Source: Gammaproteobacteria bacterium (GTDB taxonomy: Bacteria; Pseudomonadota; Gammaproteobacteria; Pseudomonadales; JAUIET01). From it: DNA of 64,000 nucleotides. The stretch covers positions 179,002 through 243,001 of the forward strand of contig JAUIET010000007.1 in NCBI GenBank assembly GCA_030429735.1, in the 5' to 3' direction. The notes below the pieces were generated by a model. That model did no database searches, was not told where the DNA came from, and saw only the letters and a list, made by a program, of their open reading frames with translations. Position numbers and translations under genes: made by a program. Shown here piece after piece: positions 16,486-46,463 of the stretch (its first letter is position 1; each line of letters begins with the position of its first letter).

Positions 16486-16627
16486 AAGGCTGTCATACTG
16501 TCGGTTGTGCGCTTACCGGTGGGTCGCACGGCTGCATAAGCTGCTGTGTGTTTCATGTCGCGCATATTAGATGCGTATTGTACTCATCTCTACCCCCACA
16601 ACGACAACCCGAAAAACAGGAATATTC

Positions 16628-17347: not shown

Positions 17348-17402
17348 GGGCGATATCGCAATAAGAAAGGCGCGCATTGATTAACGTTGCGCAGCGCTTG
17401 AC

Positions 17403-18161: not shown

Positions 18162-18200
18162 GATCGCCCCTGGAACTTGAAGCGTGTATCATAATTGCAA

Positions 18201-18845: not shown

Positions 18846-18958
18846 CCGCACTTTTGCCTCGATAGCACATCAATATCGCTTTGTTCAGTGCTTGTTCAAG
18901 GTTTTTTGGCTAAAATCAGTAATACAGTCATCTTCAACGCCGAGCTACGCGGAGCGAA

Positions 18959-19630: not shown

Positions 19631-19644
19631 TCAGTTGGGCTCAA

Positions 19645-20265: not shown

Positions 20266-20466
20266 GGCCGTGCCCTGCGGTGTTGAAGCGCCAATGCTAT
20301 CGACTTAGCAATGCGCACACAATGCACAGCTACATTATGCACAAATTAAACGGCGTGGCTGCGGCGATCACACCACACTAAGCGTGCGACACGGGCGGGT
20401 TACCAGCTCAGACAAAGGGCAGCCCGGAAAGGCAGACAAAAGGCAGCTCAGACAGGCAGGCTGCAA

Positions 20467-21372
<906 letters not shown>

Positions 21373-21418
21373 TCAAACCTGGATTAGCTGCGCATGATAG
21401 TCGGATTTAGGACGTTTG

Positions 21419-24007: not shown

Positions 24008-24075
24008 TGTGATCTAGCCCCACTTCCATCTTTTTCGTCCGGCATTGGCTTGCCCGTACTCGCCAACCCATCGCC

Positions 24076-25275
24076 TTAGTTGCTTTTATATCGCTGACCG
24101 ATTTCATCAACCAACGCGGCGGCCAGGCTAAGTTTGCTCATCTGCGGCAAATCCAGCGCCTGTTCTTTACTTATCAAAGTCACCTTATTCTGGTCGCTTT
24201 GAAAGCCAATTTCCGAATTTGATACGTCATTAGCAACTATAAGATCGAGTTTTTTTCGTTCCAGCTTGCTTCGTGCATAGCTGATCACATCATTAGTTTC
24301 AGCAGCAAACCCTACACAAAACGGCCGAGCCGGGAGTGCGCTGACAGTCGCCAGAATATCTTCTGTGCGAGTCAGTGTGAGTTCCATCTCAGACGAATTT
24401 TTTTTGATCTTGTTGTTGGCAACATTCAACGGTGTGTAGTCGGCAACCGCGGCAGTGGCGATAAAAATATCGCACCCGGCCATTTGTTCAAGTGTAGCAG
24501 CCAGCATATCTTTCGCACTTTTTACATCTATACGTTGAACGTTTTCTGGGCAGTTCAGGCTGACCGGCCCCGCTATCAGCGTGACATCGGCACCTGCTTC
24601 GCTGGCAGCACGCGCCAGTGCAAAGCCCATTTTGCCCGAACTGTGATTGCTCAAAAAACGCACAGGGTCAATAGCTTCCTGAGTTGGCCCGGCAGTGATC
24701 ACCACATTGAGTCCGGCCAGGGCGCCACGGCTGAAGTGCGCGGAAACCTGGGTGAGCAGTTGATCAATATCCAGCAAGCGCCCAGCGCCTATGTCGCCGC
24801 AGGCTTGTAAACCGCTGTCAGGACCGAGAATTGTGATTCCGTCTTTGCGTAAGGCATCGATGTTAGTTTGCGTGCTGGTTTGTGCCCACATGCCCTGATT
24901 CATGGCTGGTGCAATAAACTTCGGCGCAGCACAGGCCAGGTACACAGTGCTCAATAAATCGTCTGCCTGGCCATGCGCGATGCGGGCAATAAAATCCGCA
25001 CTGGCAGGTGCCACCAGCAAGGCGTCGGCCCAACGGGCAAGCTCGATATGACCCATGGCGGCTTCGGCTTCGGGGTTAAGCAGGTCCAGATGAACCGGTT
25101 CGCCCGACAAGGCCTGCATCGTCAGTGGTGTGATAAATTCAGTGGCTGCCGGCGTCATTACCACTCGAACCTTGGCATTTTGGTCCTGCAAGCGCCGCAC
25201 CAACTCGGCCGCTTTATACGCTGCGATACCGCCAGTGACGCCAAGTAAGACATTTCTGTTGCTTAATTCGTACAT
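24076..25275 (-). CDS. coaBC: bifunctional phosphopantothenoylcysteine decarboxylase/phosphopantothenate-cysteine ligase
   Basis: 'VLLGVTGGIAAYKAAELVRRL' flavoprotein N-domain and 'RFLSNHSSGKMG' CoaB motif. Confidence 0.93.
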   Translation of the reverse strand: MYELSNRNVLLGVTGGIAAYKAAELVRRLQDQNAKVRVVMTPAATEFITPLTMQALSGEPVHLDLLNPEAEAAMGHIELARWADALLVAPASADFIARIAHGQADDLLSTVYLACAAPKFIAPAMNQGMWAQTSTQTNIDALRKDGITILGPDSGLQACGDIGAGRLLDIDQLLTQVSAHFSRGALAGLNVVITAGPTQEAIDPVRFLSNHSSGKMGFALARAASEAGADVTLIAGPVSLNCPENVQRIDVKSAKDMLAATLEQMAGCDIFIATAAVADYTPLNVANNKIKKNSSEMELTLTRTEDILATVSALPARPFCVGFAAETNDVISYARSKLERKKLDLIVANDVSNSEIGFQSDQNKVTLISKEQALDLPQMSKLSLAAALVDEIGQRYKSN

Positions 25276-25363
25276 TGCCTAATGATAGTTGCTCTGGTTG
25301 CCGTGGTACGATACAGCAAGCCTAAATAAAGGTATATCTCACGCTTAAAGACAAGGAGGTCTG

Positions 25364-26038
25364 ATGAGCATTCTCGATTGGCACGTGGCCGAACGCCCGC
25401 GTGAAAAGTTGTTAACCCATGGTTGCAGCACGCTCAGTGACGCAGAGTTACTGGCGATTTTTGTGCGCACAGGCACCCGAGGTAAATCGGCGGTGGACGT
25501 TGCGCGCAACATCCTGCAGGCCAGCGGTGGCCTGCGCAGCCTATTTGATTGCGACGCTAAGCAACTGACCGGCATTCCTGGCCTGGGTCCGGCCAAGGCA
25601 GCGCAACTGTTGGCCATTATGGAAATGGCACGCCGTTATCTCAGTACCGAGTTACAGCAGCGCCCGGTGCTGGGCTCGCCAAAAGCCACCCGTGACTTCC
25701 TCCAGCTCAAACTGGCCGGCCGCCATAGCGAAGTGTTTTGCGGTTTGTTTCTCGATGCACAGAACAGAATGCTGGCCTTTGACGAATTGTTTCAAGGCAC
25801 TATTGATGGCGCGGCCGTTTACCCGCGAGAAGTTGTTCGCAAGGTCCTGCAATACAACGCAGCCTCTGTTATTTTCGCGCACAATCACCCCAGTGGCGTG
25901 GCTGAACCCAGCCAGGCTGACCATCGTATTACCGAGCGTTTGCAACAGGCCCTGGCATTGATTGATGTAAGGGTGCTTGATCACCTTGTTGTAGGCAGTG
26001 GCCGGTCGGTGTCGTTTGCGGAAAACGGCTGGCTTTAG
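25364..26038 (+). CDS. radC: RadC/YicR-family JAB-domain protein
   Basis: 'ERPREKLLTHGCSTLSDAELLAIFVRTGTRGKSAVDVA' and the JAMM motif 'FAHNHPSGVAEPSQAD'. Divergent from coaBC. Confidence 0.9.
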   Translation: MSILDWHVAERPREKLLTHGCSTLSDAELLAIFVRTGTRGKSAVDVARNILQASGGLRSLFDCDAKQLTGIPGLGPAKAAQLLAIMEMARRYLSTELQQRPVLGSPKATRDFLQLKLAGRHSEVFCGLFLDAQNRMLAFDELFQGTIDGAAVYPREVVRKVLQYNAASVIFAHNHPSGVAEPSQADHRITERLQQALALIDVRVLDHLVVGSGRSVSFAENGWL

Positions 26039-26049
26039 CGGCGCTGGCT

Positions 26050-26082
26050 GGCTTAGCCTTGGGGTTCTCCAAGGCCTAAGCC
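26050..26082 (+). terminator. stem-loop downstream of radC (possible terminator)
   Basis: Near-perfect inverted repeat GGCTTAGCCTTGG / CCAAGGCCTAAGCC, 12 nt after the radC stop. There is no clear T-tract. Confidence 0.35.
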
Positions 26083-26328
26083 ACAGTATTATCGTTATCA
26101 TCTGTGCTTGCCCCGACAGGCGGCATATCCATTCATCGCATATTTTTTGAACAACCAGTAAATTTCTTTAGAATCGCCCTTATCTAACGAAAAAGCATTG
26201 CGATATAACACTTAAAGTTATTTTTGCGGTGCTTCGGTTCACGCTGTTTGCCGTGTGAATAAGTGGAACCAGCAAGTGTTGTGCTTTGTCGGCCCTCACA
26301 AGAATAAGCAATAAGGATAGCGACCAGC

Positions 26329-26409
26329 ATGACCTCTCCCCGAACCGTTTCCCGGTTGATATTCGCCTTGGCAATACCGGCATTTTTCGTTTCCCCGCTA
26401 ACAGTTGCG
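26329..26409 (+). other. predicted Sec signal peptide of the RHS protein
   Basis: 'MTSPRTVSRLIFALAIPAFFVSPLTVA|ETE': positive n-region, hydrophobic core, and an AxA-like (TVA) cleavage site. Confidence 0.6.
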
Positions 26410-29400
26410 GAGACTGAAAATGCAAGAAACAGCCAACATGAGGCTCTGAACTTTCGTACTTCTACCGCCTCAAAATCCAGCAGTGGCGGGTATTCCAGAT
26501 ACGACCGAAAGAAACGCGGTGGGCACGGCAATGGACATCACGGTGGCGGGCACCATGGCGGAGGTCATCACGGTGGTGGGCATGGGGGTAAGGCACCAAA
26601 CTGCGATGCTGCGTTCGCTTCTCCCGGAAAACTATGGCCACCCAATAATCGTTACTCAAAAGTTCGCATAGATGGTGTGGGTGGCCGCGGCACGTACGTA
26701 GCTGTGCAATGCATTACCCAGGACGAGCCGCTAAAAGCGAATAGAAAGGGACGCAAACAATACACCGCCAAGGGCATTGGTGGGTCCTCTGCCTACGTTC
26801 GCAAACAGCGGCTGGGTAGTGAAAACGGGCGGGTTTATCACATTGACTACAAGGCATGGAACCGGCATGGCCAATGTACGGGCACAGTCACAGTGGGAGT
26901 GCCAAAGAACCGCTGGAGCAAAGCGATAGACGACGGGCGCCTGGTATCTGCGGCAAAGAACAACCGCAAATGCTCGATAAGCCCAGTAAACCAGCCGCCA
27001 AGCATTAGCTCAACGCCATTGCTGAATGCCACAGCGGGGGTTGAATACAGTTATCAGGCAACGGCCACTGATCCCGACGGCGATCAGTTGACTTATTCGG
27101 TTTCACAATTGCCCGCAGGCGCAAATATTAACTCGCAAACGGGCCTGCTCAGCTGGACACCGGGTTCAGGGCAGCTCGGCGATCATAACATTGCGCTTGA
27201 AGTGAGTGATGGTCAAGGCGGAAGCGATTCTCAGAGTTTCACGCTGACCGTGGAACGGAGTAACAGTGCGCCTTTGGCGACTCCCCAGCAGCTGACGGTA
27301 AACGAAGATGGGAGCCTGGCAATCACGCTGACGGGTAGCGACTCCGACGGAGATACCTTGAGTTTCAGTGTGGGCAGTAATCCAAGTGCCGGCGTGCTAA
27401 GCGGCGAAGCACCTGCCCTGGTGTACACGCCAGCTCTGAACTTCAATGGCAGTGACAGTTTTACATTCAGCGTAAGCGATGGCGAGCTAAGCTCGGTGCC
27501 GGCATTGGTGTCTATTCAGGTTAACTCCGTTAATGACGCACCCACGGCGAATGCTCAAGCCTTGACGCTTAATGAAGACAGTACGTTGGATATTACGCTC
27601 AGCGGCAGCGACCCAGACGGCGACAGTCTCAGCTACACGCTGTTAACTCCACCAGGCCTGGGAACGATTAGTGGCACAGCGCCGAACATCCGCTATACAG
27701 CAAACGACAACATCAACGGCGATGACAACTTTACCTTTGTGGTCAGTGACGGCACCGTTGACTCGACTGAAGCGACTATCTCGCTGAGCATTCTTGCGGT
27801 AAATGACTCACCAGTGGCTAAGGATATTCAACTGGAAACCTCGGCCGGCACACCGGTTGATGTAACACTGGACTCTACTGACCCGGACCAAGACACACTA
27901 AGTTACGCTGTGGTGACTGACCCGCAAAATGGCGTGCTGAGCGGCGCCGGGCAGGCGCTGAGCTATACACCCAATGCGGGCTTTTCCGGCACAGACTCGT
28001 TCACGTACAGAAGCAATGATGGCGAGCTGAATTCCAACACCGCCACTGTGCAAATAAGCGTTGTTAGCAATAATGCGGCACCGGTAATCGGCAGCACTCC
28101 GGTAACCCAGGCAACACAAGACAGTCTGTACACCTATCAGGTGAATGCAAGTGATGATGACGGCGACCCAATAAGCTTCGCGCTGCAAACAGCACCGAGT
28201 GGCATGAGCGTTGATGCTACCAGCGGCGAGATTAGCTGGTTGCCCACAAGCTCAGACGCTACCAATGTGCTGGCAAGCAATGCACAGTGTAAAATTCCAG
28301 GGTCCGAGCAGGAAGTATTTCCAGAAGCGATGGACGCCGTGATGGTAGTTGACGGCTCACTGTCTAACTATATGGCCTGGCCATGGATGTCTTCCGCGTT
28401 GGCAGGCCTGGACGCCGATTTGCAGTTGTTGGGAATTGGTGCAAACGCGTCTTCAAATCGCTATGGGCTGATGTACTTCGGCAGCACCACCAGCGCCACA
28501 GAATTCGAGTCCGGTCTGTTTGGCGCCGTTGATGAGCTGTATGAGGCAACGTTCGATGCCGTACCACCCGGTGTTGGCGGGCGCGAGAATGGCCTGCTGG
28601 CGCTGCAGCGCACTATAGATAGTTACCCCTTCAGAGAAGATCTTCCCAAGAATTTGATCTGGATACCGGACGAGCCGCAGCAAAACAATCTGGAAAATGG
28701 TGAAACGCTCGCAGAGTTCAGGCAACGCTTGATTAATGGCAAGTTCAATGTGCATGTTGTCACTAGCTTTGACTTTGAATGCGACAATGATTCCCGATTG
28801 ATTCTCGGCCTCACCGCAGAAGGCCAGGCCTTTGTTGAAGACGGCCGTGGCGGGTTTGAGACTTGCGAGTTTGATACCAGTAAGCTTGATGACGTTTCTG
28901 ACACAGATGCCGCGTTTTTTCTGGAACCCTTTGTAAGAACCGCTCTGGCAAGCGGTGGCGGCGCCTGGAGTCTGCGTAAACTCACCCAGCCGCCCACGGC
29001 CGACGGCCCGGACATTCTGCGCGAGGCGCTAACAACTCAATTATTTGGTGCCACTGTTTCTGTTGTGGCGGAAAATCAGCAGAGTGACCTTACCGTTGCC
29101 GGTATTAGTGTTGTGCAAAGCGCGCCAGAAGAACACACAGCGCAAGTGAGTATTATCAACCGGGGGCTTGTGGCGAGCGAAACCAGTAGCGCAGTGAATA
29201 TCAGCAGTGCTGCCAACCCGGAAACTGTATTAGGCAGTGCAATAGTACCCGTCATTCAGCCAGGTGAAACGGTTCAGTTAGCAGTGCTAGTGTCTACCGC
29301 TAGCCCACCGGCAGTGATTCGGGCGGCTATTACCCCGGTGTTGAACGAATGCGATACTGCGAACAACGGCGCCAACACACCGTTCGTAACCATTGTGGCC

Positions 29401-32400
29401 AGTGACCCCAATGGCGGCGAAGACACTCAATCATTTTCAATCTCTGTAAACAACGTCAATGATGCTCCGCAAATCACATCTAACCCTGACAATACAGCAC
29501 AGGTAGGCAGAACGTTTAGCTACACTCCGCAGGTACAAGACGCAGACATTGGCGACGCACACAGCTATCGCGTGACGGGCAGTGGCATCGCGAGCATTGA
29601 CTCAATAAGCGGCGTTTTCACCGTTCAGCCGAAACAATCGGATGTTGGTACGCATAACTTTGCAATAACAGTGACTGATCTTGCTGGCGAGTCTGACACG
29701 CAATCCTTTGCGCTGACCATTGTGGGCAACTACATCACACCGTTTTTTGACGATCACCCGCGCAGCAACCGGGCAATCATCGATCAGCTGTTTCAATCAA
29801 CGCCGTCGGTAACGGCTGACCCAACCGCAGTATTGAGCTTTTCCTTATTGGAATCGCCAAGCGGCATGAGTATTGATGAATTGACCGGCACCGTTAGTTG
29901 GACACCTTCGCCAGACGATTTTGATCGCATACACCTGGTTACCATCGTGTTATCAGATCAATTCAACAATCGCGATGCTCTGTCTTTTATGGTGTTTGGC
30001 GACACAGTTAACACGCCACCCAGCATTGTGGATGAACCTGACACGCTGGCAACATTGGGAGATGCTTTCCAAACAGAGCTTGAAATAGCAGACGACAACG
30101 TGCGTGAAGATTATACGGTCTCGCTGAATACAACGACCAATGTCACGATTGACAACGCTCAACTCAATGGCCTGGACACCACCAGTATTCTTCTGAACTG
30201 GGGCAGATTCAATGTGGACGGAAGTTTTCCGCAACACATGCGGCAAACCGACCATCTTTGCCAGCATCCGGCCTCTACTCTGCCGAATGCAGCTGTGCAG
30301 TTCCGGCCACTGTGGGACGAGCAACGATTATTCATTGGCGACTTTGTACTGGCAGCACCGCTTGCTGACTCTAATGGCGACGGTCAGATCAATACTCTGG
30401 ACCGCAACTCTGTACTGATTTCATACCCTTCTGGAGACACCCGAATACTGGAAGCGCTTGATGGTATAAGCGGGCAGTCGCTATGGGTTCATGGCTTTGA
30501 ACGCAGCAGTGGCATACCCCCTTCGCGCCGGCACGCGCCCGCCATAGCGGATATTAATGGTGACGGTGTTCCCGATATCATTCAATTGGCGGAAGACAAT
30601 ACCACCTTGTTTGCAATGAGTACCGACGACGGTAGAGAGCTTTGGCGAACGAGTGAACCGGTTAGTACAGGTTTTAACACCTACGGCTACGGGCAAGTAA
30701 CGCTGACCGATATAGAGGGTGACGGCCAGCCGGAAATACTCGTTGCTTATGCGGTGTTTGATGCAAACGGCAACTTGCTGATGCGGCTGCCGGAACCGAC
30801 AGATGGCGCTGGCAGCAGTGTAGGTAGCCCGATATACCCGGTTGATCTCGATATGGATGGAGAACGAGAGCTGGTACAGGCGGGTGTTGTTCGCTCAATC
30901 AACAATAGTGAAATCTGGCGGGTTACTTTCCCCGACGGTCATAGCTCACGCCTTGCTTTCTCGGCATTTGCTAATTTCGACTCAGACCCCGAACCCGAAA
31001 TGATACTTGTTGAGCGCAGTGCGGCCGACCAGGCGGCGAGCGTCAGTCTGGTAGACAACGGCGGTGCACTGCTGTGGGGGCCGGTTGCCATCAGTGTGGT
31101 TGGCCAGCCGGTGGTGGCCGACTTTGATAGCGATGGTCAGCTGGAGATATTCGTAGCAGGCGATGAAACGCTGTTTGACCACCTGGGCAATGTTCAATGG
31201 AGTTTGAACTCACAAGGGAATTCAGACGGTGAAACCGCATTGGCCGCCGATATTCAGAACAATGGCCGCGTGGAGCTTATTCTTCATCGCGACGGTCGCA
31301 CCAGTATCATTGATGGGCTAACAGGCGCAGTTATTGTAGACGCGCTAATCGGTGCTGCAGAGTCGAGCCATATCCCTGTATTGGTGGATATCACTGGCGA
31401 TGGCAGCCCTGAGCTGATTAGTACCGACAGTCGTTCAGTGCAAGTAGCCACATACATTGGCAGCGTTGTAAACCCATCACTGCCCAATCTGGTCAATCAG
31501 CGTTGGTGGCAGGCCAACACGCTCACCAGCGATTTGCAGGTAAACCCGGTCGTTAGTACGCCTTGGGTAGACAATAATGCCGACCAATCATTGACCGTAG
31601 CCACGCGCCTGTTTGACCAGGGAATTTCCGACATACGTGTAGGCGCACCGCAAGGAAGCCGTAGTCAGATCAGCGTTGAGCTATACAACCGCGGTACGGC
31701 GGCCACAAACACCACCGTGGACGTGACTATTTACGCTGGCAATCCAGATGCCGGTGGTACGGAGCTGGCGACACAGGCTATCGGCTCGTTGGACATTAGC
31801 GAAACACGTATTCTCACTTTCCCGGTAACCGTACCCGAAGACTTTGTGGGTGAAATAGTGGCGCGCGCCGTTCCTCGTACGGCAATTACAGAATGCCAAA
31901 CCAACAACAACTCAACGTCTGCGCACCTTTTGGACGTTGTGGTTGAAGATTATGCCGGCGCCGCGTTCGTTAAGGACTTTTTACTGGGCGTACAATACGA
32001 GATTGATACTTTCAGCCTAAGCTCGCCAACACCCACTACGGCCACGGAAGGCGAAGAATTCAGTCTTCAGATTGAATTCAATCGTAGTGTAACCAGCAAA
32101 GACGACAACAACACCGCATTCTATTCGTTTACCGCCGCACCCGATGGTGCCTCGATAGACCCGCTGACTGGATTGCTCACCTGGACACCTGATTACGGCC
32201 AGGCTGGCACCCACTCCATTGCAGTCATTGCTTATCATCTGGACGGCGCGTCTCAGCGTTTCCTGAGTGTTACTGTACAGCCTTCAGCCAATACACCACC
32301 AGAGATCACCAGCACGCCAGTTACCGGCAGCCGACCGCTGGAACCCTTTGTATATGACGTGCAAGCCACCGACGCAGACGGTGATACGCTCAGCTATAGC

Positions 32401-35400
32401 CTGCCCACCGCACCAAGCGGCATGACCATCAATTCGTCCACCGGACTGATTCAATGGACACCCGATGCTGAAGGCGTGTTCAGTGTAGTGGTCAGTGTTG
32501 ATGACGGCATTTTCTCAACGACGCAAGCTTTTACGCTAACGATAGTTCTTGCCAATGAAGGCCCCGAAATTACCAGTACCCCCTCCACCAGCGTAGACGC
32601 CGGAGTCACATATCAATATCAGGTAGAAGCGACGGACCCCGAAGGTGAAGACATCAGCTATTCGTTGACCACGGCACCGCTGGGTATGAGTATCAACGAC
32701 ACTACCGGCTTGATCAGCTGGGCCACCGATCTTGCTGACGCGGGTGTGCACCCGATTGAAGTGCGTGCTACCGACGCCAGCGAGCAATTTAGCACGCAAA
32801 GCTACCAGCTGACGGTGGTTGACGCCACGCCTAATCAGCCACCGCAAATCACATCTTCCGCACCGGTCATTGCAGTGACTGGCCAGGAGTACCAGTACAG
32901 TGTGATGGCAAGCGACCCAGACGGTGACTCATTAACGTATCAATTGACCGCAGCACCTGCTGGCATGACCGTGTCACCCACGGGGCTTATCAGCTGGCAG
33001 GCCGATGTTACACAGCTGGGCTTGAACAACGCGTCGCTACGCGTTGAAGATGGGCGCGGCGGCTTCGCCACGCAAAACTTCGTTGTTGAAGTGCTCGAAG
33101 GCGGCTTGCTGGCCTTGAACCTGGGCATTACACCGGCCATTGCCGTGCAGGGTAACCCGGTCACTATTACCACCACACCGATTAATGCAGTGGCGCCGTT
33201 CACCGTAGAGCTACTGGTAAACGGCAACGCAGTAACGCTGGACAGTAATTTTCAGGCCCAGGTCGTTGAAAACTCATTGGGCGAGCACAGCGTGCAGGCA
33301 ACGCTAACAGACCCAACCGGAACAGCGATGCAAACCGGCAGTTTCACCGTACGCGAGCAAAACAACAGCGCGCCGCCGGTGGTTTCAGTGCTGCAGCCGA
33401 TGTTGGGCGATGAAGTCACCGCCGCCACCGATGTGATCATTTCCGTCACCGACGACGGCGACTTGAGCAATTGGCGTTTGGTTACCTTCGAGCGCGGTTC
33501 CGCACCCAGTGAATTTTTGGTGCTGGCGGAAGGCACTGATACCGGTGAGAACATGACCGCCGCCAGCTTCGACCCCAGCCTGCTGTTCAACGGTCAACAT
33601 GTGATTGTGCTGCAGGCCTTTGACACTGCCGGCAACGAATCGCAAGACAATGTGGTTGTTAGTGTGGATGGTGACCTGAAGGTGGGCAATTTCTCATTTA
33701 CCATTGAAGACGTAAATGTGCCATTGGCGGGCATTCCCATCGCGGTGTCTCGCACTTATGACACACGGCAAAAACACCGTAGCATGGATTTCGGTCACGG
33801 CTGGAGTGTGGATTATCAAAACGTACGCGTGCACGAGTCGCGAACCCCCGGTGCATTCTGGCAGTTGAACCAATACATGACTGGCCCGTTGGGTACCTTG
33901 CTGCGTTATTGCGTAGAACCCCAGGGCGCTCCTCTGGTGACAGTCACACTGCCAAATGGCGATGTGGAACGCTTCGAAATTGCGGCCGACCCCGTGTGTA
34001 ACGACATTGTGCCCATTCTCGACGTAACGCTTGAATTCACGCCGCTTGGCGACACACAGAGCACACTCGAAGCGCTAAATGACAATACCGCGCGGCTGGT
34101 GAATGGCGCCTTGGTAGAAGACGGTTCGTTCTCACAGCCCGTGAACCCCAGCCGATACCTGCTGACCACACGCGCTGGCTACCAATACTATCTGCACCAG
34201 GCGTTTGGTGTTGAGCAAATCATAGACCCGAATGGGCATACGATTACCTACAGCGACAGTGGCATTGTGCATTCCAGTGGCAAAGCAGTGAGCTTTACTC
34301 GCGATAGCGACGGGCGTATCACGGCAGTTACTGACCCTTCGGGTAACAGCATCAGCTACAGCTACGACAGCAACAACGACTTGCAATCAGTAAGGGAACG
34401 CGACAGCGCCGAAAGCACCTACGTGTATAACACCGAGCATGGTCTGGTGGACATGTTTGACCCACTGGGCCGGCGCCTGGTGCGCAACATCTATGATGAC
34501 GACGGTCGCCTGATTGCCCAGGAAGATGAAAACGGTGTGCGCACTGATTTCAGTCATGATCTAAGCGGGCGTCAATCCATCATCACCGACCGCAACGGCA
34601 ACACCACAATCTTTGATTACGACGAACGCGGGAATGTCACCTCGCAGACCGATGCGCTGAGTAACACACGCACCTACACCTTTGATGCGCGCGACAATCA
34701 ACTGAGCGAGACTGACCCGCTGGGCAATGAGTCTACGGCCACCTACAACAGCAATAACGACCAACTGACGCAGGTGGATGCCCTGGGCAATGAGCTGCAA
34801 TTCAGCTACAACGCGCGCGGGCAGGAAACTCAGATTACCGACGCCCGAGGCAACGTGTATCAAAACACCTATGACTCGGTAGGTAATTTGCTCTCTGTCA
34901 CCGACCCGTTAAGCAATGTGGCCGGGAACAACATCAATGCTCAAGGCCTGGTAGCCAGCACTACTGATGCCGTGGGCAACACCACCAGCTACACCTACGA
35001 CAGCGAAGGCAACAAGCTCACCGAGCTAGACGCGCAAGGCAATACGCGCTCGTACACTTACGATGCCAACAATAACGTGCTTACCGAAACGGTGAACCGT
35101 TCCGTATTCGGCGTACCCGTGGGGGAAACGACCACATTCACTTATGATTCGCGTAACCGAGTGATCAGCACCATTGACCCGCTCGGTAACCTTACTCGCA
35201 GCGAATACAATCTCGCAGACCAGGAAACCGCGCAAATTGATGCCTTGGGCCGGCGAACTGAAATGGATTACGACGTGTACGGTAATCTGCTGGAAGTGCG
35301 TTACCCAGACGGTACCAGCACGCAACATGTCTATGACGCGGAAAACAACCGAACCAGCACCACAGACCGCCTGGGCCGCACCACCAGCTTTGGTTTTGAC

Positions 35401-37935
35401 GCACTGAACCGCCTGGTTAGCACAGCGTTCCCAGACGGCAGCACCACCCGCAGCGAATACGACGCAGCCGGTCGCCTCATCACCGAGATTGACGGCAACG
35501 GCAATCGCACCAATTATCGCTACGACGAAGCAGGCCGCCGAGTGGAAGTGGAAGACGCACTCGGCAATGTGCATACCCTCATTTATGACGGCGACGGAAA
35601 CGTAACGGGTGAAATCGACGCCAATGGCGTGTTCATGTTCTATACCTTGAACGGTCTCGACCAGCGAGTGAGCACGGTGTACCAAACCGGCGACCAGGTG
35701 TTTGAGAACTTCGACGCCCTGGGCCGCAGAACCGAGCATATAGACGAGGCCGGCATTCAAACCCAGTTCGGCTACGACGAACTGGGCCGCCTAAGCCGTG
35801 TTACGGACGCGCTCGGTAACACCTCCGAATACGAGTACGACGAACTTGGCAATAAACTGGTAGAAACCACCGCCGACTTCAATCGAACCAGCTGGGAATA
35901 CGACGCCCTGGGCCGCGCCACGCGCCGAACCCTGCCGGGCGGTCAAGTTGAAACCATGGTTTACGACGCCGTGGGCAACCTCACCAGTCATACCGACTTC
36001 AACGGTGACACCACCACGCACCAATACGATGTGAACAACCGCCTGATTCAAAGTGATTTTGCTGACGGCAGTCAGGAAACGTTCGCTTACGATGCCGAAG
36101 GCAATCGAACCGCCGCCACCTACACCGTAGGCGGTACAGCGAGAAGCTGGAGTTATGGCTACGACGGACTCAACCGCCTCACTAGCGAAACACAGCCCGA
36201 CGGCACAAACCTAACGTACACCTACGACGGGGCCGGCAATAAAACTTCGCTCACGGTCACGCAAGGCGCGAGCGCGCAAATCACCCGCTACGGCTATGAC
36301 GCGCTTAATCGCCTGGCCACGGTAACCGACCCGAATGGCAACGTGAGCAGCTACAGCTATGATGCCGTAGGCAATCGCACACTCATGGCGTATCACAACG
36401 GTAATCGCACGAACTATGTATACGACGGCCGTAACCGCCTGACGCGCCTGTCCACGACCGACAGCAGCAGCGAGGTTCTGCAACAATTCGACTACACCCT
36501 GCACCCAACCGGTCGGCGAACGCAGATTGATGAAGCCAACGGCAGAAGCACAAGCTATGGCTACGACGTGCTGTACCGGCTCACCAGTGAATCGATAAGC
36601 GATGCGGTAAATGGCGATTACACGGCAAGCTACAGCTACGACGCTGTAGGCAACCGTACTCAGTCTGTGATTGATGGCGTGACGACAGCGTACAGTTACG
36701 ACGAGAACAACCGCCTGACGCAACAAGGCGGGACTGTTTACAGCTACGACAGCCAGGGTAATACGCTCAGCGAAACGCTGGACGGAAATACCGTTAGCTA
36801 TAGCTACAACAGCCAGCATGAACTGATCGAACGCACCGATGCCAGCGGCTCAACGCTGTTTGAATACAACGCCGACGGCATTCGCACCGCGAAATCCGAA
36901 GGTGGAACAACAACGGCATTCACCATCGACAGCAATCGCGATTATGCACAAGTTATCCGTCAGAGTGACGGTGCAAGCAGCAGAGAGTATGTGTATGGCG
37001 ACGATCTAATCAGTCAAACGCTGGATGGTGTGGAGAGTGTGTATCACTATGATGGTTTGGGCAGTACCCGAAGCTTAAGTGATGCGGCAGGGAATCTGAC
37101 TGATAGCTATAACTATGAGGCTTTTGGGACTTTGTTGAATCAGACGGGGAGTACGGATAATAGCTATTTGTTTACGGGGGAACAGTTTGATGGAACGTTG
37201 GGGCAGTACTATCTCAGAGCGCGGTACTACGACCAAGGGGTAGGGCGGTTTACGCAGATGGATACGTGGATGGGTATTGGCATTGAACCAATAACGCTGA
37301 ATAAAAATCTCTACGCAGAATCAGATCCAGTCAATAACGTCGATCCGCTTGGCTTGTTTACCCTCCATGATTTTACGGCTGCCCAGAATACGCAAGCCGT
37401 AAACGCTACATTGAATCTAGCAGGGGCAGCGGTAATTTTTAGCAGTTCATTGGATTCGATGTCCTCCGGAGCATCCCAGAATTCGACTGCTTCCGGTATT
37501 AGGTGCCTATCAGCCGTCGTAGAATCTACGATGGGGATGCGAGCACCAAAAAATGCAAACGAAGAAAGAGAGTGCGGAGATCTAAATCAGATGCGAGCAC
37601 AATGGCAACAAGGAACATCTCCGATTGATGTTAGTGTTGTGTTGACAAATTTCCCAAACAGAGGAGTTTCCGTTCGGCAGGTCCAAGCTGGATTAAATCA
37701 GATATACTTAAGGCGAAGCGAACCAAATTGGTGGCCGTCGGCTTCATCGGGTTTAGACAGATGGATGTATGACAGTATCATCAGTCTAAGCAAAACGCTT
37801 AATGGTTTCCCACCTCATGGAGTGCCAGAGTTCACCACCGGGACGATTCTGACCAAACAGACAACTTACCGAAGTAAAAATTTCCGCATTGATATTGAAA
37901 ATATCCGAGGTAACAACCTTAAAAGATTGCACTAG
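26329..37935 (+). CDS. giant secreted RHS/YD-repeat polymorphic toxin with adhesin-like N-terminal region
   Basis: Uninterrupted 3868-aa ORF. In order it contains:
- a Sec signal peptide
- a His/Gly tract
- cadherin-like/He_PIG-type repeats ('ATDPDGDQLTYS...GLLSWTP')
- three ~95-aa 'NDAP...' repeats
- a DxSxS (VVDGSLS) vWA-like segment
- CARDB-like segments
- about 8 FG-GAP/VCBS blades ('DINGDGVPDI', 'DIEGDGQPEI', 'DFDSDGQLEI', 'DITGDGSPEL')
- dozens of YD repeats ('YxYDxxGNxxxxxD')
- the RHS core end 'RARYYDQGVGRFTQMD...DPVNNVDPLGL'. Confidence 0.9.
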   Translation: MTSPRTVSRLIFALAIPAFFVSPLTVAETENARNSQHEALNFRTSTASKSSSGGYSRYDRKKRGGHGNGHHGGGHHGGGHHGGGHGGKAPNCDAAFASPGKLWPPNNRYSKVRIDGVGGRGTYVAVQCITQDEPLKANRKGRKQYTAKGIGGSSAYVRKQRLGSENGRVYHIDYKAWNRHGQCTGTVTVGVPKNRWSKAIDDGRLVSAAKNNRKCSISPVNQPPSISSTPLLNATAGVEYSYQATATDPDGDQLTYSVSQLPAGANINSQTGLLSWTPGSGQLGDHNIALEVSDGQGGSDSQSFTLTVERSNSAPLATPQQLTVNEDGSLAITLTGSDSDGDTLSFSVGSNPSAGVLSGEAPALVYTPALNFNGSDSFTFSVSDGELSSVPALVSIQVNSVNDAPTANAQALTLNEDSTLDITLSGSDPDGDSLSYTLLTPPGLGTISGTAPNIRYTANDNINGDDNFTFVVSDGTVDSTEATISLSILAVNDSPVAKDIQLETSAGTPVDVTLDSTDPDQDTLSYAVVTDPQNGVLSGAGQALSYTPNAGFSGTDSFTYRSNDGELNSNTATVQISVVSNNAAPVIGSTPVTQATQDSLYTYQVNASDDDGDPISFALQTAPSGMSVDATSGEISWLPTSSDATNVLASNAQCKIPGSEQEVFPEAMDAVMVVDGSLSNYMAWPWMSSALAGLDADLQLLGIGANASSNRYGLMYFGSTTSATEFESGLFGAVDELYEATFDAVPPGVGGRENGLLALQRTIDSYPFREDLPKNLIWIPDEPQQNNLENGETLAEFRQRLINGKFNVHVVTSFDFECDNDSRLILGLTAEGQAFVEDGRGGFETCEFDTSKLDDVSDTDAAFFLEPFVRTALASGGGAWSLRKLTQPPTADGPDILREALTTQLFGATVSVVAENQQSDLTVAGISVVQSAPEEHTAQVSIINRGLVASETSSAVNISSAANPETVLGSAIVPVIQPGETVQLAVLVSTASPPAVIRAAITPVLNECDTANNGANTPFVTIVASDPNGGEDTQSFSISVNNVNDAPQITSNPDNTAQVGRTFSYTPQVQDADIGDAHSYRVTGSGIASIDSISGVFTVQPKQSDVGTHNFAITVTDLAGESDTQSFALTIVGNYITPFFDDHPRSNRAIIDQLFQSTPSVTADPTAVLSFSLLESPSGMSIDELTGTVSWTPSPDDFDRIHLVTIVLSDQFNNRDALSFMVFGDTVNTPPSIVDEPDTLATLGDAFQTELEIADDNVREDYTVSLNTTTNVTIDNAQLNGLDTTSILLNWGRFNVDGSFPQHMRQTDHLCQHPASTLPNAAVQFRPLWDEQRLFIGDFVLAAPLADSNGDGQINTLDRNSVLISYPSGDTRILEALDGISGQSLWVHGFERSSGIPPSRRHAPAIADINGDGVPDIIQLAEDNTTLFAMSTDDGRELWRTSEPVSTGFNTYGYGQVTLTDIEGDGQPEILVAYAVFDANGNLLMRLPEPTDGAGSSVGSPIYPVDLDMDGERELVQAGVVRSINNSEIWRVTFPDGHSSRLAFSAFANFDSDPEPEMILVERSAADQAASVSLVDNGGALLWGPVAISVVGQPVVADFDSDGQLEIFVAGDETLFDHLGNVQWSLNSQGNSDGETALAADIQNNGRVELILHRDGRTSIIDGLTGAVIVDALIGAAESSHIPVLVDITGDGSPELISTDSRSVQVATYIGSVVNPSLPNLVNQRWWQANTLTSDLQVNPVVSTPWVDNNADQSLTVATRLFDQGISDIRVGAPQGSRSQISVELYNRGTAATNTTVDVTIYAGNPDAGGTELATQAIGSLDISETRILTFPVTVPEDFVGEIVARAVPRTAITECQTNNNSTSAHLLDVVVEDYAGAAFVKDFLLGVQYEIDTFSLSSPTPTTATEGEEFSLQIEFNRSVTSKDDNNTAFYSFTAAPDGASIDPLTGLLTWTPDYGQAGTHSIAVIAYHLDGASQRFLSVTVQPSANTPPEITSTPVTGSRPLEPFVYDVQATDADGDTLSYSLPTAPSGMTINSSTGLIQWTPDAEGVFSVVVSVDDGIFSTTQAFTLTIVLANEGPEITSTPSTSVDAGVTYQYQVEATDPEGEDISYSLTTAPLGMSINDTTGLISWATDLADAGVHPIEVRATDASEQFSTQSYQLTVVDATPNQPPQITSSAPVIAVTGQEYQYSVMASDPDGDSLTYQLTAAPAGMTVSPTGLISWQADVTQLGLNNASLRVEDGRGGFATQNFVVEVLEGGLLALNLGITPAIAVQGNPVTITTTPINAVAPFTVELLVNGNAVTLDSNFQAQVVENSLGEHSVQATLTDPTGTAMQTGSFTVREQNNSAPPVVSVLQPMLGDEVTAATDVIISVTDDGDLSNWRLVTFERGSAPSEFLVLAEGTDTGENMTAASFDPSLLFNGQHVIVLQAFDTAGNESQDNVVVSVDGDLKVGNFSFTIEDVNVPLAGIPIAVSRTYDTRQKHRSMDFGHGWSVDYQNVRVHESRTPGAFWQLNQYMTGPLGTLLRYCVEPQGAPLVTVTLPNGDVERFEIAADPVCNDIVPILDVTLEFTPLGDTQSTLEALNDNTARLVNGALVEDGSFSQPVNPSRYLLTTRAGYQYYLHQAFGVEQIIDPNGHTITYSDSGIVHSSGKAVSFTRDSDGRITAVTDPSGNSISYSYDSNNDLQSVRERDSAESTYVYNTEHGLVDMFDPLGRRLVRNIYDDDGRLIAQEDENGVRTDFSHDLSGRQSIITDRNGNTTIFDYDERGNVTSQTDALSNTRTYTFDARDNQLSETDPLGNESTATYNSNNDQLTQVDALGNELQFSYNARGQETQITDARGNVYQNTYDSVGNLLSVTDPLSNVAGNNINAQGLVASTTDAVGNTTSYTYDSEGNKLTELDAQGNTRSYTYDANNNVLTETVNRSVFGVPVGETTTFTYDSRNRVISTIDPLGNLTRSEYNLADQETAQIDALGRRTEMDYDVYGNLLEVRYPDGTSTQHVYDAENNRTSTTDRLGRTTSFGFDALNRLVSTAFPDGSTTRSEYDAAGRLITEIDGNGNRTNYRYDEAGRRVEVEDALGNVHTLIYDGDGNVTGEIDANGVFMFYTLNGLDQRVSTVYQTGDQVFENFDALGRRTEHIDEAGIQTQFGYDELGRLSRVTDALGNTSEYEYDELGNKLVETTADFNRTSWEYDALGRATRRTLPGGQVETMVYDAVGNLTSHTDFNGDTTTHQYDVNNRLIQSDFADGSQETFAYDAEGNRTAATYTVGGTARSWSYGYDGLNRLTSETQPDGTNLTYTYDGAGNKTSLTVTQGASAQITRYGYDALNRLATVTDPNGNVSSYSYDAVGNRTLMAYHNGNRTNYVYDGRNRLTRLSTTDSSSEVLQQFDYTLHPTGRRTQIDEANGRSTSYGYDVLYRLTSESISDAVNGDYTASYSYDAVGNRTQSVIDGVTTAYSYDENNRLTQQGGTVYSYDSQGNTLSETLDGNTVSYSYNSQHELIERTDASGSTLFEYNADGIRTAKSEGGTTTAFTIDSNRDYAQVIRQSDGASSREYVYGDDLISQTLDGVESVYHYDGLGSTRSLSDAAGNLTDSYNYEAFGTLLNQTGSTDNSYLFTGEQFDGTLGQYYLRARYYDQGVGRFTQMDTWMGIGIEPITLNKNLYAESDPVNNVDPLGLFTLHDFTAAQNTQAVNATLNLAGAAVIFSSSLDSMSSGASQNSTASGIRCLSAVVESTMGMRAPKNANEERECGDLNQMRAQWQQGTSPIDVSVVLTNFPNRGVSVRQVQAGLNQIYLRRSEPNWWPSASSGLDRWMYDSIISLSKTLNGFPPHGVPEFTTGTILTKQTTYRSKNFRIDIENIRGNNLKRLH
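33682..37356 (+). other. RHS/YD-repeat shell region ending in the DPxGL cleavage motif
   Basis: Runs from 'VGNFSFTIEDVNVPLAGIPIAVSRTYDTR' (plug-like start) through continuous YD repeats to 'DPLGL' (37342-37356). Confidence 0.8.
37357..37932 (+). other. C-terminal polymorphic toxin domain of unknown family
   Basis: 192 aa after DPLGL ('FTLHDFTAAQNT...RIDIENIRGNNLKRLH'). Visibly more AT-rich than the RHS core. I recognise no nuclease, deaminase or ART motif. Confidence 0.6.
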
Positions 37936-38399
37936 TGAATAGAGACGAGTTAGTACGAACAGTAACATATGGGTTGAAAGATGGATCGTCGGCCATTGAT
38001 TCGCTTCGCCTTGGTGTTTCGATCATAGAAAAAATTAGGGGTAAAGCACCTGACCACACCTGGCCGCCCTCAGTTCTCGATGCTGATTTCTCAGAAGATG
38101 ACGCTAAGATGCTGATCGATTCTGTTAAAAACTTCCTAGATACAGTGGATAAAGGCGATGTGGCAGTTGGAACGGCGATATGGTTCCTTCAAAAAACATA
38201 TGATTCTAGCTTGCTGCCAATGCTTAATAGCTTGCTAGCCGTACTTGTCGAGGAGAACCAAGGTGCTGTATTTCAGTGTCTTTATGCAATTCAATCACTA
38301 GGCGGCGTGCTGCCAAATGAAGTGGTGTCTTCTCTGGATATTGAGGGGAATATGGTGACGGCCCGGGAATACATATCAAAAGGGTCGACAATAAGCTAA
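37935..38399 (+). CDS. putative cognate immunity protein of the RHS toxin
   Basis: The GTG start overlaps the toxin TAG stop by 1 nt (TAGTG at 37933-37937). 154 aa, no signal peptide, helical-looking, and the same AT-shifted composition. This is the canonical position for an immunity gene. Confidence 0.6.
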   Translation: MNRDELVRTVTYGLKDGSSAIDSLRLGVSIIEKIRGKAPDHTWPPSVLDADFSEDDAKMLIDSVKNFLDTVDKGDVAVGTAIWFLQKTYDSSLLPMLNSLLAVLVEENQGAVFQCLYAIQSLGGVLPNEVVSSLDIEGNMVTAREYISKGSTIS

Positions 38400-38419
38400 C
38401 TATGTAGCTAGCTGCACAT

Positions 38420-38751
38420 AAAATCGCATGGACAGGTAAAATCGCATGGACAGGCACTTCGAATAATATTTTTCGGAAGTATGGGGACCAGAAGTATGGG
38501 GCCAGAGTAAAAACTCTGGAGCTGTTCAAGGGGCGCAGATAAAATAGCAGGAACATCAGGAGGTTGATTCAAGGAACAAGAGCCAACTGGACAGGCACAA
38601 ACCAATTGATAAGCGGAGGCAACCAAATCGCAGGGACAGGCAATTCGAATAATATTTTTCATATTTTTCGCAATTGACTGGACAGGCACAAACCAATTCT
38701 GGGCCGCAGAACCGAGTGAGCAATTGACTGGACAGGCACAAACCAATTGAC
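38420..38751 (+). repeat. array of GGACAGG(C/T)-core repeats upstream of the RAYT-like gene
   Basis: Seven core copies in + orientation:
- 'AAAATCGCATGGACAGG' x2 (38420, 38438)
- 'AAATCGCA(T/G)GGACAGGCA(C/A)TTCGAATAATATTTTTC' x2 (38439-38475, 38625-38661)
- 'CAATTGACTGGACAGGCACAAACCAATT' x2 perfect (38671-38698, 38721-38748), plus a variant at 38583-38608. Confidence 0.85.
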
Positions 38752-38807
38752 TCCATGATTTAGCGCTTGTACGATAAAACCACTACTTAATCGTTAAAGG
38801 ACTAACG

Positions 38808-39755
38808 ATGCCTAGACCACGCAAGGAATTGGTATCCATTGCGGATACACCTTATTACCACATCGTTTCACGCTGCGTCCGTCGCACCTTCTTGTGCGGT
38901 TTTGATGAAGAAACTCAAGTCAGTTATGAGCACCGCCGCGAGTGGATCGAAACGCGAATACGCTTACTTACATCCGTGTTCGCGGTCGATGTATGTGCTT
39001 ACGCGGTGATGAGCAATCACTACCACATCGTTCTGAAGCTGGAACCTAAGCAAGCGGACGAATGGACTGACGATGACGTTCTTGAGCGCTGGCAAGTACT
39101 GTATAGAGGGACGCTGCTGGTTCAACGCTATGCACGCGGTGAGCCTCTGAATTGTATTGAATATCAGCAAGTTACAGACACATTAGCGATCTACCGTGAT
39201 CGCCTCAAAGACCTAAGTTGGTTTATGAAAAGCCTCAATGAACCCATCGCACGGCAGGCCAACAAGGAGGACGGCTGCACTGGGCATTTCTGGGAAGCAC
39301 GTTTTAAGTCGCAAGCGCTGCGCAGTAATGCAGCTTTGCTGTCATGCATGGCATACGTGGATCTGAACCCAGTCAGAGCAAGTATGGCACAATCACCTGA
39401 AGAATCAGAATACACAAGTATTAAGGAGCGTGTTGCACCTACTGATGATAAAGAACTACGTAACAGATCCGAAGACTTTACCGTCCCGGTCAAACCCCTT
39501 GCCAAATTTGCAGGATCACTACGGAAGGATGAAGAAGCGGTCATACCGTGCAGATTTGAAGAATACCTTGAGTTGATTGACTGGACCGGTCGAAGAATTC
39601 GCGGTGACAAACGCGGTGCAATCCCCGTGCACCTTGCGCCAATATTGAACCGATTGGGCATGAGAAGAGATCAATGGTTGCGAAATAGTACGCAATTTGA
39701 ATTGATTGGGAATATGGACACAGCGCCAAAGCAACCCCGACTAGCGAGTGGCTAG
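38808..39755 (+). CDS. Y1 HUH tyrosine transposase, RAYT / IS200-like (COG1943-type) with C-terminal extension
   Basis: 'PYYHIVSRCVRRTFLCG', the HUH motif 'SNHYHIVL' (HYH at 39018-39026), and the catalytic-Tyr motif 'AYVDLNPVRA' (Tyr at 39354-39356). Confidence 0.8.
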   Translation: MPRPRKELVSIADTPYYHIVSRCVRRTFLCGFDEETQVSYEHRREWIETRIRLLTSVFAVDVCAYAVMSNHYHIVLKLEPKQADEWTDDDVLERWQVLYRGTLLVQRYARGEPLNCIEYQQVTDTLAIYRDRLKDLSWFMKSLNEPIARQANKEDGCTGHFWEARFKSQALRSNAALLSCMAYVDLNPVRASMAQSPEESEYTSIKERVAPTDDKELRNRSEDFTVPVKPLAKFAGSLRKDEEAVIPCRFEEYLELIDWTGRRIRGDKRGAIPVHLAPILNRLGMRRDQWLRNSTQFELIGNMDTAPKQPRLASG

Positions 39756-39940
39756 GGTCAAGACATCGAGGCGATTCGATACACGAGCTTTCTAACCGCT
39801 TGCGATTGTTGGTGCTTCGATTGCCGATTTATGATCAAAATCGACAAGAATTCTCCTCCGTCAATGTTCTCAACTGGTAAAAGAGGACCGCTTGTTGTTT
39901 GAGCTGCTGGATTACTAAGCGTTCCGTTTTAATTTGTGCA

Positions 39941-39999
39941 TGTCCACACCCATCGCCTGTCCACACCCATCGCCCACACCCATCGCCCACACCCATCGG
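39941..39999 (-). repeat. tandem repeat (TGTC)CACACCCATCGCC x4 containing the inverted GTGGACAGGC core
   Basis: TGTCCACACCCATCGCC at 39941-39957 and 39958-39974. CACACCCATCGCC at 39975-39987. CACACCCATCGG at 39988-39999. Confidence 0.85.
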
Positions 40000-40084
40000 A
40001 ATTAGCAGATTATTTACAAACGCCAATACCTATTTCGCTGATGGTTGCTTAGACTGGGCGTCTTCGTAATGTTGCAGAGCGTGT

Positions 40085-44073: not shown

Positions 44074-44079
44074 GGAACA

Positions 44080-45180: not shown

Positions 45181-45182
45181 GG

Positions 45183-46364: not shown

Positions 46365-46463
46365 GGCAATCTAATGTTTCATGGCTTGGCGACAAATACA
46401 AACGCTATTGTATTACCTGCGGTGTTCTGGTTTAATGTCGCGCTCGATTTTTAGGGGTGAATT

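Follow-up and report, generated by a model that had tools for sequence, protein, structure and literature searches.

A probable Sec-exported RHS polymorphic toxin with a giant adhesin stalk on a 14-kb island of a gammaproteobacterium

Described RHS toxins of the secretory pathway and the present locus

In 2012, Zhang et al. put the general secretory pathway ('T2SS', for type II secretion system) first in frequency among the routes by which polymorphic toxins are exported, and many of the signal-peptide toxins of that survey combine RHS repeats with N-terminal adhesion domains (PMC3482391). The RHS bacteriocin Bcn-A of Xanthomonas perforans is active in supernatants, and a mutant in xpsD, the gene of the T2SS secretin, loses this activity (PMC7259588). 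Bacterial teneurin-like proteins (TLPs) also have a Sec signal, adhesin N-termini and immunity genes (Nat Commun 2026, PMC13018210). The gene considered here lies at 26329..37935 on the plus strand of a 64,000-nucleotide (nt) stretch of a Gammaproteobacteria bacterium (the window; GenBank assembly GCA_030429735.1, contig JAUIET010000007.1, positions 179,002 to 243,001) and encodes an adhesin-RHS protein of 3,868 aa, which is very probably a Sec-exported RHS polymorphic toxin with cognate immunity. The overall proposal, that this toxin is independent of a type VI secretion system (T6SS) and resides with its immunity gene on a horizontally acquired 14-kb island, is held with moderate confidence. 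An earlier reading of the letters alone (the sequence-only reading) had considered a Sec signal on a Gram-negative RHS protein to be anomalous. This premise has to be given up, because such proteins form a known class (PMC3482391) and occur as Bcn-A, as TLPs and as a family widespread in marine Gammaproteobacteria. Its comparison with WapA and teneurins, on the other hand, holds in its logic, as the protein has the same series of Sec signal, adhesin stalk, RHS cage and tip.

The class of Zhang et al., which is defined by comparative genomics alone (PMC3482391), shares with the present protein a signal peptide, N-terminal adhesion modules, central RHS repeats, a variable toxin and downstream immunity, with no dedicated secretion domain. 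However, the present stalk (tandem-95/He_PIG, vWA and FG-GAP modules, ~2,400 aa) is far larger than the SH3/laminin-G anchors of that class, and the present tip matches no toxin family now in Pfam. Bcn-A is likewise a Gram-negative RHS toxin with a downstream immunity gene, extracellular and dependent on XpsD for its activity, an export behaviour of which only the signal peptide can be recognised here. Unlike the present protein, it has 1,398 aa and no giant adhesin stalk, and it needs the accessory ORF2 and ORF4, for which no counterpart is seen at the present locus; this likeness is drawn from the descriptions and not from the sequences. The WapA proteins of Bacillus subtilis and Streptococcus suis (PMC12704120) are Sec-dependent surface RHS/YD toxins with a polymorphic tip and immunity, acting in contact-dependent competition, but they belong to Gram-positive cells without an outer membrane, are anchored by cell-wall-binding repeats and have a much shorter N-terminal region.

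TLPs resemble the protein in their Sec signal, their variable adhesion modules, the YD shell round a polymorphic toxic tip, the PxxxxDPxG motif and the immunity genes, and their delivery route is an unanswered question too (PMC13018210). The present YD shell aligns to that of the TLP structure 9pt5 (9ifo is another) with an E-value of 1.4e-33. Nevertheless, the protein falls outside the TLP definition, because no NHL propeller is found between plug and shell and the TEN_YD-shell model remains below its cut-off (17 bits against 50). Of the TLP order of FN-plug, NHL propeller and YD-shell, it has the plug and the shell, with ~140-200 aa between them and no NHL match, and its own propeller, ~750 aa upstream of the cage, belongs to the FG-GAP type, unlike the NHL propeller of TLPs. 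The TIP domain, which precedes the plug in 96% of TLPs (PMC13018210), and the TTR domain were not detected with the libraries used, which held no TIP model. Moreover, Gram-negative TLPs are mostly predicted lipoproteins (signal peptidase II, SPII), whereas the present protein has a type-I signal (SPI). Nothing describing the marine adhesin-RHS family was found in the open-access literature. The kind of system is already known and the locus does not itself answer the delivery question; what is new is the structure of the island and a previously undescribed candidate toxin/immunity pair, whose tip has a confident model without a functional analogue.

The RHS cage, its variable tip and the candidate immunity gene

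The precursor begins with a Sec type-I signal peptide (aa 1-27; 26329..26409), as do nearly all full-length homologues; this and all the features of the protein described below are on the plus strand. The n-region of the signal holds R5 and R9, its h-region (aa 10-24, LIFALAIPAFFVSPL) is the sole strongly hydrophobic 19-mer of the whole RHS protein, and cleavage is probable near aa 27/28, between TVA and ET. It has no lipobox, the cleavage region being without Cys. These features are those of the classical Sec signal peptide recognised in the sequence-only reading.

Domains were called with Pfam and NCBIfam, on the whole protein at E<=0.01 and on eight sub-segments at E<=1. The RHS part starts with a DUF6531 plug and the beginning of the shell (aa 2441-2640; 33649..34248), where the plug scores 27.7 bits against a cut-off of 24.1. 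The RHS/YD-repeat shell (aa 2641-3595; 34249..37113) matches RHS_repeat PF05593 in 21 stretches (414 bits, E 1.6e-127) and TIGR01643 in 14. This array is long enough for a shell and gives alignments of ~900 aa to solved shells, among them, besides the TLP 9pt5, the Rhs structure 8h8a (E 2.6e-49 by sequence). The core end (aa 3596-3676; 37114..37356) matches Rhs_assc_core TIGR03696 with 61.1 bits against a cut-off of 32.5, and it closes at aa 3676 with PVNNVDPLGL, a PxxxxDPxGL motif with DPLGL at aa 3672, preceded by the Asp motif MDTWMG at aa 3644. The aspartyl-autoprotease motifs are intact, and autocleavage is predicted by analogy with the structures of TcC, Rhs and TLP proteins.

A scan of one genome per species yielded 46 homologous loci, many of them in Marinobacter, Hahella, Halieaceae, Cellvibrionaceae, Kangiellaceae, Gilvimarinus, Pseudoteredinibacter, Methylococcales and Alcanivoracaceae, and a few in metagenome-assembled genomes (MAGs) of Chitinophagaceae and Polyangiaceae. 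The relatives are 35-40% identical to the window protein; full-length members have 2,500-4,600 aa and nearly all start with a signal peptide. RHS, He_PIG, Big_9 and Cadherin_5 are present in 13/13 aligned members, while FG-GAP, vWA and the N-terminal adhesive domains (IgGFc_binding, pAdhesive_15 or a Cys domain) vary. Expressed as the mean of 12 family members against the window protein, identity is 18-37% in the stalk, climbs to 52% in the plug and 51% in the shell, reaches 68% in the core end, the best-conserved part, and falls to 17% in the tip after the DPxG motif. Sister tips carry PT-HINT, DNase_NucA_NucB or EndoU RNase domains, and in the window the GC content, which is ~0.55 before nt ~36950, is lower from there on, at ~0.45, up to and including the immunity gene. 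A conserved core followed by unrelated tips, together with this drop, is what classically marks an RHS polymorphic toxin whose tip/immunity cassettes can be exchanged, and the low-GC cassette indicates that toxin and immunity are probably still being exchanged. The C-terminal polymorphism among relatives that had been looked for is therewith found. At several homologous loci (L005, L024, L025, L034, L045 and others), RHS C-terminal fragments and small open reading frames (ORFs) lie 3' of the main gene and look like orphan tip/immunity cassettes; no orphan RHS tip cassette lies downstream in the window. Near-identical signal peptides (MTRYFSLCLFF...) are also seen in two members from different phyla, a Chitinophagaceae MAG (L002) and a Kangiellaceae MAG (L003), which suggests that either a transfer took place recently or one MAG was wrongly binned.

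The polymorphic C-terminal region (aa 3677-3868; 37357..37932) has 192 aa. It begins with a low-charge, moderately hydrophobic linker, a property of the first ~45 residues past the cleavage site in 12/13 family members that could, as a speculation, help the released tip through a membrane, and it ends with a toxin core of ~115 aa (aa ~3752-3866, nt 37582-37926). A word-indexed homology search found no relatives of the tip, whereas 58 came to light at E<=1e-3 when 1.84 billion representatives were scanned exhaustively with HMMER. In these, the core is always at the extreme C-terminus, often right behind an RHS core end, and has the motif NxMRVQLQ...GVTxRQV...WFP...AIIxxS...PPxG...YRxDxENLRGxNLR, with Q, Q, G, V, P, S, G, R, D, G, N and L near-invariant. 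No Pfam family matched any of 43 members of this tip family, and its profile retrieved from the PDB sequences only the RHS core end of 9pt5. Because this C-terminal domain, in spite of its 58 relatives, has no Pfam or PDB match, it is regarded as an undescribed RHS-linked family of predicted toxins. The AlphaFold model of the tip built with the family alignment has a confidence (predicted local distance difference test, pLDDT) of 85, and of about 95 in the core, and shows a compact domain of ββααββ topology. Strand 1 (R-x-Q-x-Q) and strand 4 (R-x-D-x-E) have conserved polar residues at alternate positions, a strand pattern that would be in keeping with a surface for catalysis or nucleic-acid binding. 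From the conserved R/Q/D/E residues, the activities of a BECR-type RNase and of an ADP-ribosyltransferase had been considered, but nothing supports either of them. A profile search with another alignment (A1) was contaminated by RHS core-end columns and gave weaker matches that were mostly RHS ends, which were left unused.

The RHS stop codon overlaps by 1 nt with a candidate cognate immunity gene (37935..38399, plus strand, GTG start), which encodes a 154-aa protein. Each of three toxin homologues is followed by a same-strand ORF of 162-179 aa, none of them with a signal peptide, and one of these positional analogues is 30% identical to the 154-aa protein over 94 aa. This arrangement weakly supports the 154-aa ORF as the putative cognate immunity protein. 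Since it also has no signal peptide, it would act in the cytoplasm, and the target of the toxin would therefore be cytoplasmic. Its AlphaFold model, made from the single sequence, is unreliable (pLDDT 50). A sigma-70-like site at 37754-37781 (10/12; TAGACA, 16-nt spacer, TATCAT), inside the toxin-coding part and ~155 nt 5' of the immunity start, is the best of the region, where the number of promoter-like sites is not above chance; it could drive expression of the immunity gene independently of the toxin.

Adhesin stalk, export and competing explanations

Upstream of the RHS part, a stalk of ~2,440 aa combines He_PIG/cadherin-like immunoglobulin (Ig) modules with an FG-GAP propeller and a divergent vWA domain, in keeping with the ~2450 aa of adhesin-type modules described in the sequence-only reading, of which nearly every module was recovered with Pfam and NCBIfam. 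He_PIG is matched in seven stretches (E 2.5e-68), and Big_9, Cadherin_5 and Cadherin_4 correspond to the 'tandem-95 repeat' of NCBIfam (four stretches, E 3e-54), with VNDAP/VNDSP boundaries at aa 401, 491 and 1043; these are the He_PIG/cadherin-like and ~95-aa NDAP repeats seen before. Behind the signal peptide, a Gly/His-rich tract (aa 63-88, GGHGNGHHGGGHHGGGHHGGGHGG; 26515..26592), noted by its composition and with only a weak GRP match, may be a metal-binding or spacer element; in the L023 homologue, a long poly-Asp insertion takes its place in the same N-terminal domain. The Cys-containing domain that follows (aa 89-222, 'LWPPNN...QDEPL...GRVYHIDY'; 26593..26994) has homologues behind the signal peptides of L036, L023 and L029 and no Pfam or PDB match. 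He_PIG and tandem-95/cadherin-like Ig modules (aa 223-640; 26995..28248) lead to the vWA-like domain (aa ~655-900; 28291..29028). The DxSxS segment on which this domain had been proposed is exactly in place, as DGSLS at aa 675-679 (nt 28351-28365). The assignment is supported by transitive homology, because the window sequence itself draws no vWA call from Pfam, yet the homologous segments of L018 and L002 (31% and 27% identical to window aa ~665-885; E 9e-19 and 1e-23) exceed the VWA/VWA_2 cut-offs. Of the CARDB-like modules, that at aa 1775-1864 (31651..31920) stands marginally, with 23.6 bits against a cut-off of 22.7, and that at aa 919-991 (29083..29301; E 0.029) is weak and below cut-off. 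Between the two lie He_PIG/Big_9 Ig modules with an unassigned linker (aa 1044-1340; 29458..30348) and the FG-GAP beta-propeller of 7-8 blades (aa 1344-1700; 30358..31428), which matches FG-GAP, and FG-GAP_3 in six stretches when the segment is scanned alone. Its eight DxDxDG-type calcium-loop motifs (aa 1344-1698) agree with the ~8 blades placed earlier at 30361-31430. The stalk ends with four He_PIG/Ig_SIBA-E-like Ig modules (aa 1897-2260; 32017..33108).

How Sec-exported RHS/teneurin-like toxins leave a Gram-negative producer, and how their tips enter the target cytoplasm, are acknowledged open questions. At the thresholds given above, the RHS protein has no PAAR, DUF4150, VgrG, SpvB/TcdB, two-partner secretion (TPS), autotransporter-barrel or RTX domain, so that the search for a cryptic PAAR/DUF4150 or TcB-like module ended empty even at E<=1 on the sub-segments. 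The other routes of adhesin export (type I secretion system (T1SS) RTX proteins, TPS, autotransporter/intimin barrel, T9SS C-terminal domain, surface lipoprotein) have no Pfam match in it either, and no lipobox. Annotation of every other window ORF of at least 150 aa, shadows of longer genes excluded, revealed no T6SS, T1SS, TPS, Tc or gsp genes, in accordance with the absence of PAAR, VgrG, Hcp, TpsB, TcA/TcB and T1SS genes noted before. This lack of a partner can be extended to 14 homologous loci, where the 7 kb around the gene have no recurrent gene family: when 749 flanking ORFs were clustered, only RHS fragments and small ORFs proved common to a few loci, and Pfam on 150 flanking ORFs gave no family in more than three of the loci and, among those seen at least twice, none related to secretion. 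Because no neighbour gene is conserved at the homologous loci, the absence of an adjoining secretion partner appears to be a property of the whole family and not of the window alone. Two apparent links to a T2SS were rejected. The 'T2SSE' matches belong to pilT and pilU, which encode type IV pilus retraction ATPases in their usual proC-yggS-pilT-pilU context. The GspN of the Acinetobacter T2SS is AsmA-like (PMC12802150), but the AsmA-family gene at 40085-42289 (plus strand) is found at the same site in a relative without the RHS gene (L050), is missing in two others (L051 and L053) and stands beside no homologue of the toxin.

The proposed mechanism would start with the signal peptide directing the unfolded precursor through SecYEG into the periplasm. 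There the shell would fold round the tip, and the aspartyl protease would cut after DPLGL, leaving the tip loose in the cage. The outer membrane might then be crossed through some general system whose genes lie elsewhere, with the T2SS as the likeliest candidate by analogy with Bcn-A, and the protein would be either retained at the surface or released. T2SS substrates have no sequence signature, and surface display of adhesins by the T2SS is known, InvL being an example. As the exit route, T2SS is suggested by precedent only and is given at best an even chance. Subsequently, the ~2,400-aa stalk, in which vWA and FG-GAP propeller form an integrin-like pairing, would project the cage and bind the surface of the target cell. 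Finally, the tip would enter that cell and act in its cytoplasm, while the 154-aa protein would guard the producer and its kin; a cytoplasmic action is proposed because the immunity protein has no signal peptide, sister tips are of NucA/NucB and EndoU type and the hydrophobic stretch is kept in 12/13 members. It could further be imagined, although this is a tentative and rather doubtful extension, that the giant signal-peptide adhesin-RHS family represents a T6SS-independent, contact-dependent toxin delivery of Gram-negative bacteria, the counterpart of WapA and teneurins, in which an integrin-like vWA and FG-GAP head docks, the self-cleaved tip crosses two membranes without an injection machine and the tip is an enzyme of new fold.

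Several points weigh against a secreted toxin of this kind. The outer-membrane step has no evidence in this genome, of which the 64-kb window was searched, and the passage and delivery of the protein are as unexplained as the sequence-only reading had left them. No recognisable anchor (lipobox, beta-barrel or C-terminal sorting signal) is seen in the RHS protein, whose C-terminus is the toxin tip. To our knowledge, a protein of ~410 kDa with an RHS cage is far above any known T2SS substrate. The result with Bcn-A is a loss of activity, which could be indirect. That the tip is toxic and that the 154-aa ORF protects against it are predictions; that ORF has no database relatives but itself and only the one weak match to a positional analogue. 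The fold of the tip has no functional match, as Foldseek found nothing for its model in the PDB (best E 0.19) and only weak matches to uncharacterised jumbo-phage proteins in BFVD.

Among the alternatives, it could be argued that the protein is a structural adhesin or biofilm protein of teneurin-like cell-cell adhesion, which keeps cage and tip but is no weapon. Two thirds of it are adhesin modules, no delivery machinery accompanies it, and a role in signalling or adhesion is left open for TLPs (PMC13018210). This is nonetheless unlikely, given that the autoprotease motifs are intact in what is the best-conserved part of the family, that the tip family has invariant polar residues and is always placed at protein C-termini, that tips are interchanged between relatives, with small ORFs downstream as their partners, and that tip and immunity gene form a low-GC cassette. 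Less probable still is a Tc-like (BC-type) or other anti-eukaryotic toxin against grazers, algae or invertebrates, in which the integrin/cadherin modules would bind host cells. The absence of SpvB, TcdB_toxin_midN/midC and TcdB_mid domains from the protein, and of TcA and TcB genes from the window, speaks against it, as do the position of the propeller, ~750 aa upstream of the cage and not as in TcB, the lack of lysis-type Tc release genes in the island, and the coupling of an immunity-type ORF with polymorphic tips that are bacterial-type nucleases in sister proteins, which are hallmarks of inter-bacterial toxins. What can be said for it is that adhesion domains of eukaryotes have a likeness to the FG-GAP, vWA, cadherin-like and Ig_SIBA-E-like modules, that the host taxa are marine and often particle- or host-associated, and that the RHS cage is common to TcB-TcC.

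A PAAR-less Rhs cargo of the T6SS, loaded on VgrG through an adaptor encoded elsewhere, is very improbable, even if T6SS effectors make up the majority of the Gram-negative Rhs toxins characterised so far, Rhs shells of the T6SS give the best sequence matches in the PDB, and the search for T6SS genes covered the window and the flanks of 14 loci rather than the rest of the genome. A cleavable Sec signal cannot be reconciled with loading onto the T6SS spike in the cytoplasm, and in this family it is conserved. The T6SS Rhs effectors (Pseudomonas protegens RhsA, Photorhabdus Rhs1 (7q97), Tse5 (8cp6) and Tse15 (8uy4)) share shell, plug, autoprotease, encapsulated toxin and immunity with the present protein, but they have no signal peptide and no stalk, carry a PAAR, prePAAR transmembrane or clade domain, and depend on VgrG and chaperones. 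The present protein, by contrast, contains a 2,440-aa Ig/vWA/propeller stalk with Cys-containing domains of extracellular type and has no PAAR/DUF4150, VgrG fusion, prePAAR, Rhs clade domain or EagR-type feature, and no vgrG, hcp, eagR or other T6SS gene is linked to it in the window or recurs near any of the 14 loci. A giant signal-peptide 'RHS repeat protein' should therefore not be assumed in annotation to be a T6SS effector. A pseudogene, or a chimera assembled at internal repeats, as the sequence-only reading had foreseen and as the great length and modularity of the gene might suggest, has a negligible probability: the 3,868-aa ORF is confirmed as one unbroken frame of 11.6 kb with an ATG start, its internal nucleotide repeats are short (longest 49 nt, 60-77% identity), in a Logan assembly made independently (ERR3428547), 3,822 nt of the 3' end plus the downstream gene agree letter for letter and a product of 3,868 aa is likewise called, and 12 homologues align collinearly from end to end. 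An exact database look-up of the protein returned no record.

The island and its surroundings

The RHS, immunity and RAYT-like (REP-associated tyrosine transposase-like) genes form a ~14-kb island inserted between radC and asmA (26033..40010). It is recognised as an insertion because ~34 bp stand for these 13,978 bp in the syntenic relative L050 (GCA_045105115.1, ~77% nt identity), in which radC is directly followed by asmA, and because L051 and L053 are also without the RHS gene, which makes three relatives altogether that lack the island. In the blastn comparison, positions 8-10669 of L050 correspond to 15322-26032 of the window, and 10703 onward to 40011 onward. Horizontal acquisition is the best explanation. 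Besides the RHS and immunity genes, the island contains REP-like direct repeats with a TGGACAGGCAC core (38419..38748), located upstream of the RAYT-like gene (38808..39755, plus strand, 315 aa), and short tandem repeats (CCACACCCATCGCC; 39938..40000) downstream of it, at the right edge. The RAYT-like protein matches REP_Tyr_transpos of NCBIfam below its cut-off (E 6e-12) and Y1_Tnp of Pfam at its 23-bit cut-off, and in L043 and L045 its homologues adjoin RHS C-terminal fragments. The gene may have had a part in moving or rearranging the island. Relatives with the island and with the empty site offer a clean natural comparison and, since marine genera with family members, Marinobacter and Hahella among them, can be cultivated, the question of export and entry is genetically tractable.

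The remaining ORFs of the window are housekeeping genes: ubiA, recG, spoT, rpoZ, gmk, rph, pyrE, slmA, argB, a long phosphoglucomutase (PGM) gene, coaBC and radC upstream, and asmA, a kefB-like gene, two inserted genes, mutM, coaD, rsmD, ftsYEX and rpoH through to proC, yggS, pilT and pilU downstream. Because their proteins cluster at >=90% identity with Pseudomonadales/Pseudomonadota MAGs, and PilT with Oceanicoccus, Agarilytica, Pseudomaricurvus and Congregibacter, the host is taken, on these clusters, to be a Cellvibrionales-like marine gammaproteobacterium, which is Gram-negative. With respect to L050, a second insertion is found at 44066-46403, between kefB and rpmB, with a class-V aminotransferase/kynureninase-like gene (44080-45180, minus strand) and a PrnB-like gene (45183-46364, minus strand; PF08933, E 4e-177), PrnB being of the monodechloroaminopyrrolnitrin synthase family. 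The long PGM gene (21419-24007, minus strand) encodes a phosphoglucomutase/phosphomannomutase of 862 aa with an N-terminal extension of ~400 aa, which gives a weak dCache_1 match and is kept in L050, L051 and L053, where the protein has 858-860 aa.

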